From positions 1 through 64,000 of the IMG/VR virus record IMGVR_UViG_3300037245_001320: a DNA stretch of 64,000 bases; one strand, 5' to 3'. Below the pieces are notes generated by a model, which did no database searches, was not told the origin of the DNA, and worked only from the letters and a program-made list of their open reading frames with translations. Below, piece after piece: positions 33,509-54,762 of this stretch. Every line of letters starts with the position of its first letter. Position 1 is the stretch's first letter. Source of the DNA: a virus. Made by a program: the position numbers and the translations under genes.

Positions 33509-33531
33509 AAAAATTCCCACTATGCTATAAT
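33509..33531 (+). promoter_or_regulatory. Phage-specific (probably late/middle) promoter motif
   Basis: AAAAATTCCCACTATGCTATAAT; extended -10 without TTGACA; 3 copies in the window. Confidence 0.75.
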
Positions 33532-34317: not shown

Positions 34318-35082
34318 ATGAGTAAATATAAAATATATCAACACTTAGATAAAGAAGACAAGGTACTATATGTAGGGAGAACAACCCGTATGGACAGTAG
34401 ACAACTAGAGCATTTAAAAGCAACTCCGTATAGTAAGAAGATAGAAACAATATTAGAAGGAGAAGCAATAAATAGAACGGCTATGATTTTGTATGAGCAG
34501 TTCTATATAAACAAACTAAAACCATCAGAAAACGAAAGAGATAACAGAGGAGATGATGTGTCTTTCTTAAAGCTAGATTTAATAGAGTTCATCAATTATC
34601 CTTTTGTAAGACCTGCTCCACGAGTAAAACAAGTAATGCTCCCAACTAAGAAGTACATGAATGAAGAAGAGTTCCAAGTATTTATAGAAACGTTTAAAAG
34701 CAAAACAAAGACCGCCTTTAGAAATAAATTATTCTTTGAGATGACGTACTTCACCAAAATAAAACCAGCAGATTTTGCAACACTTACATGGAAAGATATT
34801 AAGAAAGTAAAAGGGGAACATCAATTGCATGTGCCCACAAAAGGATTTTATGTTGTTCTGCCTGAGGACATACCAGAGAAACTAAGTAAATTATATACGT
34901 TGTTTAATATGAAGAAGAAGGATTATATATTTAAACCCTTTTCTAAGGAAGCACCAATACAACTATCTTACTTAAGAAGGAAAATCACAGAGCACGGAAA
35001 ACTAGCAGGCTTCAATTTTGCAATGAATGTAAACCTTTTGCTTAAGGGAATGACGTATCACCAAATACCTATAGAAGATTAA
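34318..35082 (+). CDS. GIY-YIG nuclease fused to a degenerate tyrosine-recombinase-like domain
   Basis: N-terminal IYQH..VLYVGRT..RQLEH..E..N; C-terminal YMNEEE..RNKLFF..LTWKDI..YIF..SYLRR with catalytic R, HxxR and Y missing. Confidence 0.72.
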   Translation: MSKYKIYQHLDKEDKVLYVGRTTRMDSRQLEHLKATPYSKKIETILEGEAINRTAMILYEQFYINKLKPSENERDNRGDDVSFLKLDLIEFINYPFVRPAPRVKQVMLPTKKYMNEEEFQVFIETFKSKTKTAFRNKLFFEMTYFTKIKPADFATLTWKDIKKVKGEHQLHVPTKGFYVVLPEDIPEKLSKLYTLFNMKKKDYIFKPFSKEAPIQLSYLRRKITEHGKLAGFNFAMNVNLLLKGMTYHQIPIED

Positions 35083-44415: not shown

Positions 44416-47400
44416 TGGGATTTTATATTTTATGTATAATTTTAGGGTTACTACTAATATCTTTAGGGTTATGTTTAGTAATTAAGTTTACCCACAAAAC
44501 AGTATATGAGACACTAGGAGGTATAGCATTGTTTGTAGGATTTATAGTGTTTTCAGTAAGTTTATCCTTTATGACAGATTATGTAGAAGACGTTGTACCA
44601 GACTTTAAAGTATTAGAGGCAGAGTACAAGTATAATAAAGTACTAGATGAACAAGGTGTTTTGCAAGTTGTAGCAGAGCATATAGAGGAGGAATAGATGG
44701 GATGTTTTGATACAGTAACAGCTAAATGTAAATGTGGTGGAAGAGTAGAATGGCAATCTAAAGCAGGAGAATGTAATCTGGATGTATTTTCAGTTCATCA
44801 AGTTCCTTTGGCTATAGCAGCGGATTTAATAGAAGATACTGCCCAATGTGATTTGTGTGAAAGGGAATATCGATTAAATCTATTATTTGATATACAAAAT
44901 GTCCCAATGAATATGACAGAGGTAGGAGATAGTAGACAATGAATAACAACCTACCAGATAGATTAGATGTAGGACAGGTAAAGCATATTATGAGACTTCT
45001 ACAAATCGGTTTAAATAATACATATGATAAGAGGAACTTCAGTTTAACAGCAATAAACCCTCAGGATATAGTAGACTTAATTAAAGGAGATAAATAATGG
45101 AAATATTTAAAAGCAGATATACCCCAAATTTAAAGAATGGTAAAGATGTCGGATTTAGTATAGGAGATATGATTCTGTATAAACCAGCAGGACAATCGCC
45201 TGTGAGAGCAAAAATTGTGTCAGATAGAAGAAGTCATAAGAGTGTGGATAAGCTAGGTTATGATGCTATATTTGCAGATGATGGTAATCAGTGGTTTGCC
45301 GTAGAGGAGCAGATAATTGATTGGGAAGGGAAGGTTAAATAATGGGACCAACTGAATTAGATAAGATAGATAAGTATAATGAGTATGTAGACAATATCAA
45401 GTTTCTAGAAACAGAGGAAAAAGACAAACCAGAATCAAGAAACTTAAGAGAAGCACTAAACATTGTACATAAGAAACCGAAGTGGTTGAAAGATAGGAGA
45501 TAAATGAAAATTTTAAAAGTAAAAGATTTAAAGAGAGCAAGGAAGCACTCAATAAAAGTATTAAGAGAAGAGAAGCTAGATCGGACAGAACCATTTAAAG
45601 AGCTGCTAGAGAAAGCAACAGATTTATATGTTAAAGGATTTCCGAGGATGGAATATGAATTAAAGAAATCATTGGTTGAGAAGCATATGCGATTCTGGTT
45701 ATATCATCCTGTCTGGAATCAATGTATAGGGAGTGTAATAGATAAACCTCATAATAAGTCAAATGTTATGGTGAGTGTTTATTTTAGGAATTAAAGTAGA
45801 AAATGTAAACTATAGTTATCAAAATGATGTGAAAGTCTGTAAATGATAACTATAGTTTACATTATAAAAGGAGAAGAAATGAAAGAATGGCAAGATGTAA
45901 CAATAGACACCCTATCAGAGTGTCTAAGTATAAATACTGTAATAGAGGCACAGTACTTGAGAACAAGAAATAACACTGTTAAAGGTTATTGGGTACCTTC
46001 AGGATATGGGGTAAAAGCAATGGTAGGATATATCAGAGATAATACAAAAAGATTTAGATTTAGAATAATAGAAGAAACACAACCAAAACCTCCAATAGGA
46101 TTAAGACCACAAAATATTGTACAGGAATTAAGATATAAGGAAATAACAGAAGCTATATTTAGATATACTCAAGCAGGGAAATGTATTCCTGTTGAATGGA
46201 CAAAAGAGCATAAAGAACTAGTAAAAACTCTTGGAAAAGAAAACAGTATTAACACAACAGAAGAGAGAAGTAAATCTTTATTATTTCTATTAAATGTAGG
46301 AGTAGGTACGCCACAAGGAATAAATCTTAGTAAATCCCAGTGTGAAGGTGGTTCTGAAGTTATTAGACAGTTATTAGCAGATAGACAGTGTAAAGGAGAC
46401 AAAATGAAAAGTATATGGGTATATGATGATTTATGGGAAGAAGGATATAGATTCGATGACATCCTAAATAATAGGCATGTTATGATTGCAAGAGAGTTTG
46501 CTAAAGATGAATATGAGGCAATTTCGTATTTAGGCACAGAATATAAAAGTATCAAGAAGAACAAAGGAACAGGAATATGCATACGCAACTCAGTATATTC
46601 TAATGCCTTATTCTTATTTATATAAAAGGAGATTAAATGAAAGCAGTAATATTAATAGATAAAGACTCACCAGAGGATATAACAGCTATGGTAGAAGATA
46701 ATGGATTCTCAAGTTACCTAGAAGGCTATGGGAACAATATAGAGGAAGCTAAATATGAATTAAAGCATGTTATAGCAAATAGAATCAAGCTTCTACGAGA
46801 AATAGATGTAGATCAGGCAGAGGTCAGGGAGGTTTAGATGAAAGTAGGGGCATTAACAGTAGATATAAAGATAGGAGAGAATCCATTAGAGTTTGCTACA
46901 AAACTTATAGAGTTATTATGTGAATCAGGTGTAGCAAGAGAGATTGTAGAGGATGTAGAGCATTTGATTGCAGAGAGCTTAGTTTCAGAGGTTAATAATA
47001 CAGATAGAAGGAAGTTGTTTAATTTGGTTAAGAATAAGGAAGTAGAAAAACAACTAGTAGGGCAAAACTCTGAGGCTCATTATGAATTTGTTATAGATAT
47101 TGGAAAAGATAAGATGGCTTGTATTCAGATGACAGAATCAGCTTATAATAAATTGATGGAAAAAGGAGAATAAAGAATGCATAAAGTAATATATAAAAGA
47201 GAATTTAGTTTTGGATTAGCATATGGAGATAGTGAGAAAAACATAATAGAACCTGAGATAACAGTCCAATTACACATAACATGCAGGGATGGAATATGGT
47301 TTAGTGTAAATGTACCCAATAAATCATTCTGTGGTAGAAATATATTCAAACTATTTATAAACGCTTTAGAGAGCCAAACAGTAGGAATGATTAAGTATGA

Positions 47401-49971: not shown

Positions 49972-49994
49972 AAAAATTCCCACTATGCTATAAT
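49972..49994 (+). promoter_or_regulatory. Phage-specific promoter motif upstream of terS
   Basis: AAAAATTCCCACTATGCTATAAT, identical to 33509. Confidence 0.78.
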
Positions 49995-50116
49995 AAAGAT
50001 ATAGGAAAGTAAAGGAAAATTGCTGAGAGTCAATACAAAGCACCTAGAGAGAAAGATAGGGAAATTGGCTAAAATAACTCAGAATTTATCCCCTAAAGAT
50101 TATAGGAGAAATAGTA

Positions 50117-50752: not shown

Positions 50753-50870
50753 AAGAAAGAAACGAGATAAAGCAACTAATACAAAACTTGACTTTAATCT
50801 ATATCCAAAACAGAAGTTGGCTATGGATGGCGGGGCCAACGAGATATTATACGGAGGAGCAGCAGGGGGT
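50745..50870 (+). CDS. terL: Terminase large subunit exon 1 (42 aa)
   Basis: AAGGAG RBS, TTG start; ..LYPKQ..EILYGGAAGG, the first half of Walker A. Confidence 0.88.
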
Positions 50871-51127
50871 AAATAATACTGCTCCCTTTAAATCTCTCTT
50901 TAACGGGGAAACTCTTAACAGGTAAAGCTGAAGACAATCCCGTGGGAAGACACTTGAATGAGTGTAACCTGTAACGACTAGAGCATTGTGCTCGTACATC
51001 ACAAGCGATTGGTGATGGAAATGGGAGACAGAGTAAAATCTGAAGAGATAGTCTGATCTCATAGGAAACTATGAGCAGTTCATTTGAGAACGTGATCAAG
51101 GGTAGCGACTTGGTTAGAACATTATTG
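50871..51127 (+). ncRNA. Group I intron 1 (257 nt, no ORF)
   Basis: 5' exon ends in U with P1 partner GCTCCCT; core elements AACGGGGAAAC, AATCCCGTG, AACGACTA, GAGATAGTCT; terminal G; splicing restores GGAAGGGKS. Confidence 0.9.
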
Positions 51128-51799
51128 GGTAAATCACATTTATTGAGAATATCAGCTATAACATATTGTTTATCTTCCCCAGGTGTCCAAGTATATCTAT
51201 TTAGAAAGCAATTGACAGATTTGATTAAAGGTCATTTAAGTTCTGAGTCAGGGTTTCCTAGTTTATTATCTGGACTAGTAGATGCTAAATTATGTAAGAT
51301 AGATATGTCGAGATACAAAATAACCTTTAAAAATGGTTCAGGGGGGAATAGCTGGGCGGGTGGCTCAACTATCCACCTCAGTCACCTTTCTAAAGGAAAA
51401 AATTCATTAAATAATTATCAAGGTGCGGAGATACATGTGCTAATGTTAGATGAGGCAACTCACTTTTTAGCATCTAGTTACAAGTATTTAAGAACAAGGG
51501 TAAGGCTTGGTGGATGGAATCCTCCAGCAGAAGGTCCTTATAGTGGGGACTACTACCCCCGAATTTTAGCTTGCTCGAATCCTGGCGGCTTAAGTCATTC
51601 ATTTTGGAAGAACGAATTTGTGGATAGATTGGAAGATTATGTACCAGAGTTAATGCCTCCTGAACAAGGTGGTATGAGACGAATGTATATTTCTGCGAAA
51701 ATAACGGATAATGCTATCCTCATGAAAAACGATCCTACATATGTCTCAAGACTACTAGCCAGTGGAGAGAAATCTTATGTGGAAGCTTTATTACATGGT
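51128..51799 (+). CDS. terL: Terminase large subunit exon 2 (ATPase)
   Basis: GKSHLLR..FRK..YQGAEI..Walker B MLDEATHF..ACSNPGG..DN..ALLHG. Confidence 0.92.
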
Positions 51800-52113
51800 A
51801 AATTATTGCCCTTTATAATAGTGATATTATAATTAGCACAACTTTAATTGCTGGAAACTCTTGTTAGGTTTCAGGTACAAAGAGAAACAAATGTTTCTCT
51901 CGTGACAATCCTGAAAATAAAGACAATCAGCAGCGAAGACAGAAGGGAACTTCTGTAACGTTCATCGACTATCCCGTGAGGGAGTAGAGAGGTAGTCCTC
52001 TCGAAACAGGTTGCAACTCAAAAGAGTTGAAGATATAGTCAATTCTTGCAGGAGACTGTAAGCAGTTCATAAGAGAACGTAATTAGATTAACGATCTGGT
52101 TAGAATATAAAAG
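51800..52113 (+). ncRNA. Group I intron 2 (314 nt, no ORF)
   Basis: TAATTGCTGGAAACTC, GACAATCAGCAG, GTTCATCGACTA, AAGATATAGTC; terminal G; splicing restores LHG-NW. Confidence 0.9.
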
Positions 52114-52230
52114 AATTGGAATATTTCCATGGGAGGAATCCTACAAGATGACTTCTCCTTTGATATACACATTTTGGATGATTTTGAAATACCAAAGAAT
52201 TGGGATGTGTACAGATGTTTTGACTGGGGT
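52114..52230 (+). CDS. terL: Terminase large subunit exon 3 (39 aa)
   Basis: NWNISMGG..HILDDFEIPKNWDVYRCFDWG. Confidence 0.88.
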
Positions 52231-52542
52231 AAAAACTTGCTCCCCTTGACAGTAATGTTAAGTGTAAAACAACTTTAATTGCTGGAAACTCTCGCTAGGT
52301 TTCAGGTACTCACAGAACTTTGTTCTGAAGTAAAAATCCTGAAAATAGAGACAATCAGCAGCCAAGACAAGCATAAGCTTGTAAGGTTCAACGACTAGAG
52401 CATAAGCTCGTAGGGAGGTAGTCCTTCCGAAACAGGTTGCCCACAGAAATGTGGTGAAGATATAGTCTATTCTATATGGAGACATATAGCAGTTCAGTAA
52501 TGAGAACGTATTCAGATTAACGCCCTGAGTAGAATATGCAAG
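52231..52542 (+). ncRNA. Group I intron 3 (312 nt, no ORF)
   Basis: P1 partner GCTCC; TAATTGCTGGAAACTC, AATCAGCAG, GTTCAACGACTA, AAGATATAGTCT; splicing restores DWG-AAKPF. Confidence 0.9.
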
Positions 52543-53103
52543 GCAGCAAAACCCTTCGGTTGTATTTGGTTTGCAGAATCAAACGGAGAAGCAGTAGAAT
52601 TAGCAGACAAATCAGTAGTTACTTTTCCTGTAGGAACAGCTATAGCAATGAGAGAATTGTATGGTTGTAAAGAAGGGGAGTATGATGTCGGAGTTAATAT
52701 CACAGATAAGCAAATAGGAGAAAGAATTAAAGAAACAGAAGAGGTTTTCTTAAAAGGTTATAATATTAAAGCCGGTCCTGGGGACGGTAGTTGCTGGGGA
52801 AAAGCGAACAAAGAATTTTCAATTATTGATGATATTAACCATGGTTATTATGGAAGAAGAATATCAGATAATGAAAGACTATTCAAAAGGTTTCTAAAAC
52901 CCAAACATTCAAGAGTCGAGGGGTTTAGTTTAATTAGAACTAGATTAAGAAACTCATTACCATTTGCAGAAGGAAAGATGGAAGAGCAAGGATTATTCTT
53001 TTTAAGGGGATGTAAACATATGATAAGGACAATTCCTACACTTCCTCGAAGCGACTCGAATCCCGACGATTCTTCCCCTCATGCAGAAGACCATTTAGCA
53101 GAT
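52543..53103 (+). CDS. terL: Terminase large subunit exon 4 (nuclease)
   Basis: AAKPFGCIWFA..RELYG..C..IRTIPTLPR..PDD..EDHLAD. Confidence 0.9.
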
Positions 53104-53422
53104 AAACAACTATTGTCTGCCTAGCCTGTGAAGGTTAGTAAACAACTTTGTTAATTGCTGGAAACTCTTGTTAAGTTATAGGTACTCGTTAATTCAGTAA
53201 AAATCCTATAAATAGAGACAATCAGCAGCCAAGCCTGAAAAGGAAAGGTTCAACGATCATCGAAAGGGACAAAATAACTTGTCACTGAGTAGAGTACATC
53301 CAAGTGGATGGAAACGCAAAGCTCTCAGAAATGAGATGAAGATATGATCTAGCCTATATTGAGAAATATAGAAGTTCCTACGAGAACTGCAATAAAAGTA
53401 ACGAATTATTGTGAATACAGCG
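53104..53422 (+). ncRNA. Group I intron 4 (319 nt, no ORF)
   Basis: P1 GCAGAU/GUCUGC; TAATTGCTGGAAACTC, AATCAGCAG, GTTCAACGATCA with compensating AAGATATGATCT; splicing restores DHLAD-VLRY. Confidence 0.9.
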
Positions 53423-53488
53423 GTGTTAAGATATTACCTACTAAAGAAAGTTTCTAAAGTGGGTCAAGCTAGGGTGACATTATTTTGA
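53423..53488 (+). CDS. terL: Terminase large subunit exon 5 (21 aa)
   Basis: VLRYYLLKKVSKVGQARVTLF-stop completes the DHxxDxxRY motif. Confidence 0.85.
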   Translation: MLRYYLLKKVSKVGQARVTLF

Positions 53489-53520
53489 TAGTACAGACAA
53501 AAACTTAAGTCAAGTGCTAA

Positions 53521-53543
53521 AAAAATTCCCACTATGGTATAAT
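53521..53543 (+). promoter_or_regulatory. Phage-specific promoter motif upstream of the HNH gene
   Basis: AAAAATTCCCACTATGGTATAAT (1 mismatch to the other copies). Confidence 0.75.
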
Positions 53544-53549
53544 GTATAT

Positions 53550-53730
53550 ATAGGAAGGTTCGCATCTTCCTTAAGGTACAGTAAAATAGAGTCTCAAAGA
53601 ATCAATAAGAAAAACATATAAAAACCTCTTATTAGATCAGAAGTTAGGAAGAACTTTAAAGGATTTACTCTATTACCTTTGAAGTTCTATGCGAAACCTA
53701 ATGGAAGATCTAATAAGAGGTTTTTCATTT
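53550..53730 (+). ncRNA. Structured leader / candidate small RNA upstream of the HNH gene
   Basis: Perfect 19-bp stem 53620-38/53707-25, inner stems, bulge and loop complementary to upstream 53559-65 and 53585-92. Confidence 0.6.
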
Positions 53731-53748
53731 AAAAAAGGAATAAAAATA

Positions 53749-54762
53749 ATGAAACCAAGAGAAGTATCGCACAGATACAACAAAGCAAATGTTATGGTAA
53801 ACAAAGAACAGAAAGAGAAGATGTGTTCTGTTTGTAACAAAGTGAAAAGCCATAAGGAGTTCAATAAATCTTCTTCAAACAAAACAGATAGGTTAGCTGG
53901 AAGATGTAGAAAATGTGAACTTTCTCTACGGTATATAGTAAAAGACACACCTACTACAAAAGCAAAGAAATATAATAAAGACCACCAAGAAGAAAACTTA
54001 AAAAATAAGGAAAAGATGTGTGTATCATGTAATATAGTAAAGCCCTTAGAAGAGTATAATAAAGATAAAGCACGAAAAGATGGTAAGCAATCAGTGTGTA
54101 GACCCTGTAGGCAAGCATTTTACACTACTAATGACCAAAAGAAAAAAGCGAGGATGTATGATGATACCCCTGAGAGAAAAGCATACGAAAAGGAGCGAGC
54201 ACAGAGACCTGAGAGAAAAGCTTATTGTAAGGCACTCAGTAGCACACCTAGAGCAAGAAAACAACAAAAAGAGCATAGAAGTAGACCAGAAGTAAAAGAA
54301 AGACAAAGAGAGTTAAGTAAAATGCCTCATAGAAGAGCAACCACCAATGCATACAGGCAAAGTATAAGAGACAGACCAGAAGTTAGAGCTATGAATGCTA
54401 TGAGGGGAATTATACATAACACAGTAGCTAAGTTTGGAACTAAGAAAGAAAATAAAACTGTAGAAATAACAGGATACTCAGCTAAAGAGCTTATATCACA
54501 TTTAAACAAAGGGAAATACAAATGGAAAGACTATATGAAAAACACACATAAAAATATACTCTTCCACATCGACCACATCATACCCATATCCTATTTTGTA
54601 AAGAAAGGAAGAGAGTATTCAAAAGAAGAGCTAAATAAACTTATTTCTCGTGTCAATGATTTAAGAAATCTTAGAATATGGCCAGGAAGATTAAATGAAT
54701 CTAAGCATGATAAAATAGACAGGGATTTAATCAGAGAACATGGAATAGAGGATCTTCTTTAA
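53749..54762 (+). CDS. Free-standing HNH endonuclease with two N-terminal Zn-ribbon repeats
   Basis: CSVC..CRKC and CVSC..CRPC; R/K-rich helix; HIDHIIP..NLR..N..K; RBS-supported start at 53749. Confidence 0.85.
   Translation: MKPREVSHRYNKANVMVNKEQKEKMCSVCNKVKSHKEFNKSSSNKTDRLAGRCRKCELSLRYIVKDTPTTKAKKYNKDHQEENLKNKEKMCVSCNIVKPLEEYNKDKARKDGKQSVCRPCRQAFYTTNDQKKKARMYDDTPERKAYEKERAQRPERKAYCKALSSTPRARKQQKEHRSRPEVKERQRELSKMPHRRATTNAYRQSIRDRPEVRAMNAMRGIIHNTVAKFGTKKENKTVEITGYSAKELISHLNKGKYKWKDYMKNTHKNILFHIDHIIPISYFVKKGREYSKEELNKLISRVNDLRNLRIWPGRLNESKHDKIDRDLIREHGIEDLL

Follow-up and report, generated by a model that had tools for sequence, protein, structure and literature searches.

C4 RNA consists of two sites followed by a stem-loop that bears the complements of both (PMC12197685). 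The homing endonuclease genes of the T4 family are restrained by terminators, late promoters and RNA hairpins (PMC2988022). The stable hairpins found with these free-standing or intron-borne nucleases (I-TevI-III, segB, mobE, seg43(25)) are simple, mostly hide the ribosome binding site (RBS) and contain the late promoter; that of seg43(25) lies just upstream of the RBS without sequestering it (PMC2988022). In the PR'-tR' unit of lambda, a strong late promoter produces a terminated '6S' leader of about 180-190 nt, and the downstream genes need read-through.

We describe here a phage leader that is closest in logic to phage leader attenuators and to two-site RNAs of the C4/CI type. The window, i.e. 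the whole stretch of DNA analysed, covers the first 64 kb of a viral contig of 154,018 bp (G000; GC 33%), and its positions 53550-53748 are the transcribed 5' leader (copy A) of a nuclease gene at 53749-54762. Like the C4 RNAs of P1 and P7 and the CI RNA of P4, the leader is promoter-proximal and has two short sites with their complements in a loop and a bulge. As in those systems, the site sequences vary among related elements and could set specificity, and the setting is a phage in which a potentially harmful downstream gene is controlled. Unlike C4 and CI, it has no downstream target of the a2/b2 or seqC type at the RBS of the regulated gene, its closing stem itself looks like an intrinsic terminator, with no sign of RNase P processing, it serves mobile nuclease cassettes in a large, apparently lytic phage rather than immunity, and its pairings are best read as intramolecular pseudoknots.

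The leader would share with the T4-family nuclease genes the restraint by late promoters, terminators and stable hairpins, and shares with seg43(25) the position of the hairpin. It differs from them in that the promoter lies upstream, the Shine-Dalgarno (SD) sequence is left unhidden, and the hairpin has a U tract and is joined to the 5' end by two conserved pseudoknots. It would also resemble the lambda PR'-tR' leader in the traits named above, but has no identified antiterminator protein or qut-like site, and leader terminators occur only at nuclease cassettes.

Results

The leader follows the large-terminase gene (terL), whose final exon runs to about 53457. No cultured phage has a TerL more than 39% identical to this one, and the promoter class and the RNase context are assumptions. 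A conserved phage promoter, AAAAAAATTCCCACTATGGTATAAT, occupies 53519-53543 on the + strand, with an extended -10 element (TGnTATAAT) at 53535-53543. Its core, ATTCCCACTATGNTATAAT, is present in 12 copies in the 154-kb genome (8 on the + and 4 on the - strand), and the A-run upstream of it is nearly invariant. These copies, each preceded by an A-run, fall at 33513-33531, 49976-49994 and 53525-53543 of the window, the other nine being outside it (G000 65583-150378). Since other copies directly precede portal, scaffold and regulator genes, which have short leaders, the promoter is taken to be the phage's own strong one and is probably late in timing. Its geometry predicts a transcription start on the + strand at 53550, an A that is the seventh base after TATAAT, and T-A was observed at -1/+1 in all nuclease-leader promoter copies and in most of the 12 copies overall.

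Some features of the surrounding region were noted in passing. Transcripts from several non-nuclease promoter copies also open with a small 5' hairpin. The promoter at 49976-49994 is followed by a 116-nt leader (50001-50116), a long imperfect hairpin without a U tract, which precedes an unassigned 211-aa ORF that itself lies upstream of terL. The terL gene is split by four ORF-less group I introns (window 50795-53371; Rfam RF00028, 53-87 bits). In a related phage terL is uninterrupted (L074:798-2249), yet the same leader-HNH cassette lies behind it.

An initial annotation of the window had described a long hairpin in front of the nuclease gene, with loops complementary to its own leader. RNAfold gave exactly this hairpin, at -58.3 kcal/mol (z = -6.75; 0 of 200 shuffles folded as well), and every coordinate and sequence given for the 19-bp stem, the inner stems, the bulge, the loop and the U tract proved correct to the base. 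At the 5' terminus of the RNA, hairpin P1 (53552-53571, AGGAAG/CTTCCT) was predicted by RNAfold and holds site A, TTCGCAT (53559-53565), in its loop. Site B, AATAGAGT (53585-53592), is single-stranded and, from sequence complementarity and shuffles, has the apical loop as its partner. A linker segment, ATCAATAAGA (53601-53610), can pair with the 5' arm of P2 in folds of truncated transcripts and is a possible transient antiterminator. The 106-nt hairpin domain (53620-53725), delineated by the fold and a covariance model, consists of P2 (53620-53638/53707-53725), a perfect 19-bp stem, P3 (53643-53648/53697-53702) and P4 (53650-53662/53676-53688), which includes one G-U pair. In the fold, the 13-nt apical loop (53663-53675) carries B', ACTCTATT, at 53667-53674, and an 8-nt 3' bulge between P4 and P3 (53689-53696) carries A', ATGCGAA, at 53689-53695. 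A U tract, TTTTTCATTT (53721-53730), comes after the GC-containing part of P2, the signature of an intrinsic terminator. The SD sequence AAGGA (53735-53739) and the ATG of the nuclease (53749-53751) lie outside the fold; all of these elements are on the + strand. The A/A' and B/B' complementarities pointed out in the initial annotation are present and far beyond chance, both together arising in 4 of 50,000 leader shuffles and in 0 of 5,000 in a second shuffle test. The apical-loop word ACTCTATT is also complementary to AATAGAGT in other promoter copies, e.g. at G000 65596-65606, where AATAGAGT spans the -10 element and discriminator of several of these copies (TATAATAGAGT); this match is probably a coincidence of the promoter consensus.

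Nine homologous leaders of one architecture were identified. A, B, F and G belong to this genome, while C, D, E, H and I were reached via protein homologs in other assemblies; these five leaders belong to other phages, of metagenomic origin, in at least four further samples. Leaders F and G, on the minus strand, were recovered when the 230 nt that follow the promoter were folded for all 12 copies. Leader B heads a second cassette 12 kb downstream of A and has the same parts at the same distances (site A at +10, site B at +36), yet its A/A' (CTGAACC/GGTTCAG) and B/B' (CATTCTGA/TCAGAATG) words are entirely unlike those of leader A (TTCGCAT/ATGCGAA and AATAGAGT/ACTCTATT). Leader C, behind the uninterrupted terL, pairs TTCGACC/GGTCGAA and TCCACTA/TAGTGGA, and leader D, before a portal gene, TTCGTAC/GTACGAA and CTCACAAA/TTTGTGAG. 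The A/A' and B/B' words are TTGACCC/GGGTCAA and CCAGTG/CACTGG in F, TTGATCC/GGGTCAA (one G-U) and CCTAC/GTAGG in its ortholog H, TAGTCC/GGACTA and AGCTAC/GTAGCT in G, and TTGAAGC/GCTTCAA and CAGCGTA/TATGCTG (one G-U) in I. Leader E has TGAATC/GATTCA (6 bp) and a degraded B.

The position of site B is +35/+36 in A-D and I and +38/+39 in both F and G; in H it was placed by eye near +28. P1 is found in 9/9 copies with seven different stem sequences. A 7-8-nt bulge lies at the same place in the minimum free energy (MFE) fold of 8/9 copies; in G a local 4-bp helix takes up part of A', and the bulge, which was mis-parsed automatically, was confirmed by eye to hold the A/A' pairing TAGTCC/GGACTA. Covariance model R1, built from the hairpins of B and C only, detected all other copies, with scores of 57 bits for A (E = 6e-12), 40.7 for D, 38.6 for G, 25.4 for I, 22.7 for H, 21.6 for F and 16.7 for E. 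In the HNH gene that leader E precedes, a TAA stands in frame (507-509) within the first Zn ribbon (L079:453-560); with this stop, a 6-bp A/A' and a degraded B/B', the sole such case among the copies, the leader E cassette may be decaying. The six bases from TATAAT to the start (53544-53549) and their equivalents in L074 and L075 are complementary to sequence just 3' of P1 in C and D (the 'P1a' pairs of discriminator and P1 3' side, GATAGT/ACTATC in C and AGATGT/ATATCT in D). Since this pairing lies 5' of the predicted start, it would extend P1 only in transcripts reading through from upstream.

Searches of wider scope gave mostly null results. The Rfam search proposed in the initial annotation yielded no family match for the leader, C4 included: at the gathering threshold only four group I introns pass in the window, and with an E-value threshold the best match to the leader reached 18.8 bits against a cut-off of 100 bits. 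INPHARED phage DNA searched with leaders A and F gave no match, close HNH relatives in IMG/VR (one protein; one alignment) were not found, and strings conserved among the leaders, used as patterns against IMG/VR, matched 0 and 45 times, with 0/45 confirmed by covariance model. A whole-genome scan with R1, with filters off, brought up two additional candidates, which were rejected: a match in L088 in coding DNA, and window 45803-45871. The latter is a perfect 19-bp inverted repeat with a 24-nt loop directly upstream of an SD sequence and an ATG at 45880; it is a plain hairpin without U tract or conserved promoter, and its R1 score of 27.7 bits reflects shape only. No description of the motif was found in the literature searched, but it could be among the more than 10,000 candidate viral RNAs catalogued in 2023 (PMC10690425).

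Both long-range pairings are kept with different sequences in 8/9 copies, the exception being E, which has A/A' only. Comparison with homologous leaders, suggested in the initial annotation as a check, thus provided eight further leaders, of which seven keep both pairings with changed sequences. By inspection the cognate A/A' pairing is 6-7 bp long in 9/9 copies. In an automated matrix the cognate score was 6-7 in the eight parsed copies (G being mis-parsed), against 3-5.5 for non-cognate combinations; only the orthologs F and H, which have a common A', and one E/B pair at 6.5 exceeded 5.5. For B/B', seven copies have a cognate run of 6-8 bp and H has one of 5 bp with a wobble; in E the pairing is degraded. 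Both pairings arose jointly in 0-9 of 5,000 shuffles in seven copies. In the nested stems 98.3% of cells were paired and 20/25 modelled pairs changed on both sides in five copies, compared with 30-53% in slid controls; these values come from custom scripts and a model-fitted five-copy alignment, which leans towards the structure. MAFFT alignments of the leaders were not structure-consistent and were not used for pair statistics.

The forward strand folds better than the reverse complement in 9/9 copies, by 5.7-17.6 kcal/mol, and 41 G-U pairs were counted; the covariance model scored the sense and opposite strands at 131 vs 32 bits and 57 vs 27 bits. The leader is a real and conserved RNA-level structure of the sense strand with a co-varying two-site pairing, and the structured RNA that had been claimed from leader A alone is borne out, its two-site complementarity upheld by covariation. 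Identities of sites and scaffold were 53% vs 63%, 58% vs 72% and 46% vs 68%; as divergence of the kissing sites is just modestly above that of the rest (46-58% vs 63-72% identity), we do not claim that they are hypervariable. A longer alternative pairing of P1 strands with the 3' strands of P3 and P4, seen in truncated folds of A and C only, is not conserved and was set aside.

The gene behind leader A (53749-54762, + strand) encodes a free-standing nuclease of 337 aa, which has two Zn ribbons and basic RPE-K repeats and, at its C-terminus, an HNH-type domain resembling endonuclease VII. It matches PHROG 1035 ('endonuclease VII') at 4.6e-15, its homologs carry PF01844 or PF02945, and it is 30% identical to the paralog behind leader B. 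Leaders A-E precede Zn-ribbon HNH proteins, and leader I precedes one with a repeat-domain N-terminus in addition. Leader G precedes a 193-aa HTH-HNH protein, and leaders F and H precede a non-HNH Rha-N + T5orf172 'endonuclease' (PHROG 681, 4e-30), so that the related leader subtype E/F/H serves two different nuclease families. The gene behind leader I (L078:1282-3106) is split by a frameshift near 2306-2349, and the N-terminal 355 aa of its product form about five repeats of a module of about 70 aa (W.T...G.I.V.GQ....Y.VQF.DG..Y) without a PHROG match.

In this genome 4/4 leaders stand behind the conserved promoter and before nucleases of three architectures. In a third Zn-ribbon HNH paralog (G000 97831-98915, - strand; L086:8332-9416), whose C-terminal 200 aa are 32% identical, a plain 8-bp terminator hairpin (GGCAGAGG...CTTCTGCC + TTTTT) comes directly after the same promoter, in place of the pseudoknotted leader. 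A terminator thus lies in the leader at 5/12 promoter copies, all of them nuclease cassettes, and four of these five are pseudoknotted; at the other seven copies (portal, scaffold, regulator and others) no leader hairpin with a U tract was seen. The portal-adjacent HNH ortholog in a related phage has neither promoter nor leader and lies directly behind a terminator. A scan of 55 distant metagenomic HNH loci with covariance model R2 found the leader in 0/55, and therefore the motif is not a feature of the HNH family at large. The varied nuclease families, the leaderless ortholog and the paralog with a plain terminator indicate that promoter and leader are a portable module of promoter-equipped free-standing nuclease cassettes and not the partner of one protein. 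The tie to nuclease genes that had been claimed for leader A therefore holds, and an RNA element controlling a toxic nuclease is the best reading of its putative function.

Two further possible nuclease genes were seen without a leader. A small classical HNH gene (about 153-162 aa; PF01844, 23.6 bits) at L082:2517-3005 on the - strand (G000 116516-117004) is translationally coupled to the preceding gene and stops shortly before the terminator and promoter of cassette F. At 34327-34524 of the window, a weak GIY-YIG match (19.4 bits, under the cut-off) may mark a further nuclease cassette; its frame directly follows a 241-aa ORF resembling a 'transcriptional regulator' and driven by the promoter copy at 33513-33531.

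The leader stem lies 70-80 nt 3' of the conserved promoter in all copies, and the SD sequence and start codon lie 17-28 nt past it. A U5-6-A-U-rich tail (UUUUU(U)AU-rich) follows the stem in 8/9 copies and is weak in G. The consensus terminator scanner missed this terminator only because it allowed loops of at most 8 nt. The SD sequence is free, 5-15 nt past the U tract, and unpaired in the MFE structures of eight copies, being partly paired only in E; in leader A it lies outside the fold, so that burial of the T4 type was not seen. When transcripts cut short ahead of the P2 3' arm were folded, A/A' was predicted in 6/9 copies and both pairings in A, C and G, as nested helices, which means that they could form while the RNA is being made. 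In 8/9 of these truncated folds the P2 5' arm has a partner: it pairs with the linker in A, B, C, F, G and I, and folds back into a local self-hairpin in E and H. The pairing of linker and P2 5' arm beats shuffles in A, B, C and I (p = 0.0055 for leader A; combined p = 3e-4) and is absent in D, E, F and H.

Discussion

The pseudoknotted leaders, the plain-terminator paralog and the leaderless ortholog all put a terminator before the nuclease frame, which speaks for attenuation close to the promoter. On balance, and with some reserve, we consider the leader to be probably a promoter-proximal, cis-acting attenuator of selfish nuclease genes. This reading builds on the fold, covariation, strand, position and terminator signature and on the exclusive association with nuclease genes that have the promoter, from which we infer termination, its leakiness or regulation and the role of the pseudoknots; the poor U tract of copy G speaks against it, as does the statistical support for the competing linker hairpin in only 4/9 copies. 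It matches the multi-layer restraint of the homing endonuclease genes of the T4 family (PMC2988022).

According to this model, transcription would begin at one of the 12 copies of the strong, probably late, promoter, and the nascent RNA would fold into a compact double pseudoknot, in which site A in the P1 loop pairs with A' in the 7-8-nt bulge, and box B, about 25 nt 3' of A, pairs with B' at the top of a hairpin of about 100 nt. The closing stem of 15-19 bp and its U tract would act as an intrinsic terminator. Most transcripts would then be released as short structured RNAs of about 180 nt, and the nuclease frame would be present only on those that read through. In this way a selfish and potentially harmful endonuclease gene could borrow a strong and timed promoter while its expression is kept to a trickle. 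The two kissing pairings would fasten the first 45 nt or so of the RNA to the terminator hairpin; they may secure or tune the folding of the terminator against the competing linker hairpin, stabilise the RNA, or both, and the cassette-specific codes may keep four co-expressed leaders in one cell from cross-pairing. A plain hairpin suffices as a terminator, and the phage uses plain ones elsewhere; therefore the conserved pseudoknots imply a function beyond attenuation. Their sites do not overlap the terminator stem, and no simple switch logic therefore follows from the structure. From the modelled folds, a regulated or kinetically tuned terminator is possible. The initial annotation had proposed an RNA switch or a processed small RNA controlling a toxic nuclease; the RNA control element is retained here, while signs of processing were not observed. 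Pseudoknotted riboswitches (ZTP, fluoride, preQ1) likewise have long-range pseudoknots followed by an intrinsic terminator and, as is possible in some copies here, a hairpin competing for the terminator 5' arm; the leader differs from them in lacking a conserved unpaired core for a ligand pocket, and its pseudoknot strands lie off the terminator and vary freely in sequence.

Several other readings have to be weighed against attenuation. That the complementarity is due to chance, or is a DNA-level palindrome serving as a protein-binding or recombination site, might be entertained for AT-rich sequence (33% GC), in which short complementarities are common, the more so as the hairpins score weakly on the opposite strand too. 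It is effectively refuted by the compensated changes across nine copies, by the 41 G-U pairs, each of which the opposite strand would have as an A-C mismatch, by the energy advantage seen consistently for the sense strand, and by shuffles that almost never give both pairings. The place of the RNA, always immediately upstream of a nuclease gene, and the order promoter-RNA-terminator-protein, which resembles type III toxin-antitoxin and HEARO/IscB loci, could instead point to a partner of the nuclease protein, be it a cofactor, guide, inhibitor or antitoxin. We consider this very unlikely: the proteins served belong to unrelated families (Zn-ribbon HNH, HTH-HNH, Rha-N + T5orf172), even within the leader subtype E/F/H, one ortholog does without the leader, none of the 55 distant HNH loci has it, and it contains neither a variable guide-like free segment nor tandem repeats and has no Rfam HEARO match. 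The suggestion in the initial annotation of an RNA cofactor of the HNH protein is thus not supported, the same leader being found before Rha-N + T5orf172 and an unrelated HTH-HNH protein. HEARO, the omega-RNA of IscB, is likewise a structured RNA directly upstream of an HNH-containing nuclease gene, but the leader proteins have only Zn-ribbon and HNH-type or T5orf172 domains, without the RuvC and PLMP domains, and a non-HNH nuclease is served as well. In contrast to the RNA of type III toxin-antitoxin systems, the leader is a single unit without repeats, and the proteins downstream are of DNA-nuclease type and not endoribonucleases. An independent non-coding RNA merely co-located with mobile nuclease cassettes, for example one that oligomerises through intermolecular A/A' and B/B' pairing like the pRNA of phi29, appears equally far-fetched. 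Two cassettes do flank packaging genes (terL and portal), and loops that complement each other in one molecule can in principle pair between molecules; however, E, F, G, H and I lie away from packaging genes, portal genes of relatives have no leader, pairing within the molecule is favoured and is predicted for truncated transcripts even in the form of nested MFE helices, and there is no Rfam pRNA match.

The likeness to C4 and CI raises the question of action in trans. The terminated or processed hairpin, released from its own 5' leader, might bind through A' and B' to the two sites in nascent RNAs of its cassette and alter their fate, giving cassette-specific feedback, with the differing site sequences as 'addresses' in the manner of P1/P7 heteroimmunity. 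In favour of this reading, the layout equals the upstream half of C4/CI systems, each cassette has its own site pair with low non-cognate complementarity, and among close leaders the largest differences are at B/B' and are compensated (F vs H vs E; B vs C). The analogy drawn in the initial annotation stands as regards this layout, two sites and then a stem-loop with their complements, but does not extend to a downstream target, an Rfam match or a processing signal. An exact-word search of the 154-kb genome found no other place with both the A and B words together, and inspection by eye of the sequence beyond the hairpin showed no second target in any copy. Rfam C4 gave no match at the gathering threshold in the whole window, and none in 53440-53800 up to an E-value of 10. 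What comes after the stem is a U tract and not CCA, and no other signal of the RNase P type was found. Moreover, the loops are already occupied in cis in the intact RNA, and the sites diverge just modestly more than the scaffold. Taken together, these points make regulation in trans of the C4/CI kind unlikely. A more elaborate proposal, which we regard as rather improbable, is that of orthogonal 'self-addressed' RNA gates, likened to plasmid incompatibility and P1/P7 heteroimmunity, in which the released hairpin would read a two-word code in trans on cognate nascent leaders, in the same genome or in that of a co-infecting relative, and switch read-through on or off. If true, it would mean an RNA-based layer of immunity or feedback for homing endonucleases, made from pseudoknot-forming terminators. 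The leader might also be mainly a stability or translation element of the 5' UTR, whose 5' hairpin, locked by kissing, shields the mRNA from exo- or endonucleases or sets ribosome loading. P1 begins 2-3 nt from the predicted 5' end, small 5' hairpins occur on other transcripts of the promoter (copies ending at G000 86869 and 132935), the SD sequence is free just past the fold, and the U tract of copy G is weak. We nevertheless find such a role fairly improbable, as the U tract is kept in 8/9 copies, a paralogous nuclease cassette has a plain terminator at the same place, and a stabiliser would raise the level of a toxic nuclease, opposite to the logic of phage homing endonucleases (PMC2988022).

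Conclusions

The leader is a new structured-RNA motif, with strong evidence from architecture and covariation and an attenuator function proposed from them. If confirmed, it would represent a new class of cis-regulatory RNA, in which a terminator hairpin is locked to the 5' end of the transcript by two co-varying kissing helices. At about 180 nt, with nine natural variants that provide compensatory 'mutants', it is a compact system for the study of tertiary contacts in co-transcriptional terminator folding, and the leaders make up a set of naturally orthogonal 7-8-nt kissing codes. The leader can also serve to mark mobile nuclease cassettes when uncultured phages are annotated. Its confirmation would further mean that phages, or their selfish nuclease genes, use a portable promoter-plus-attenuator module that restrains varied families of homing-type endonucleases.
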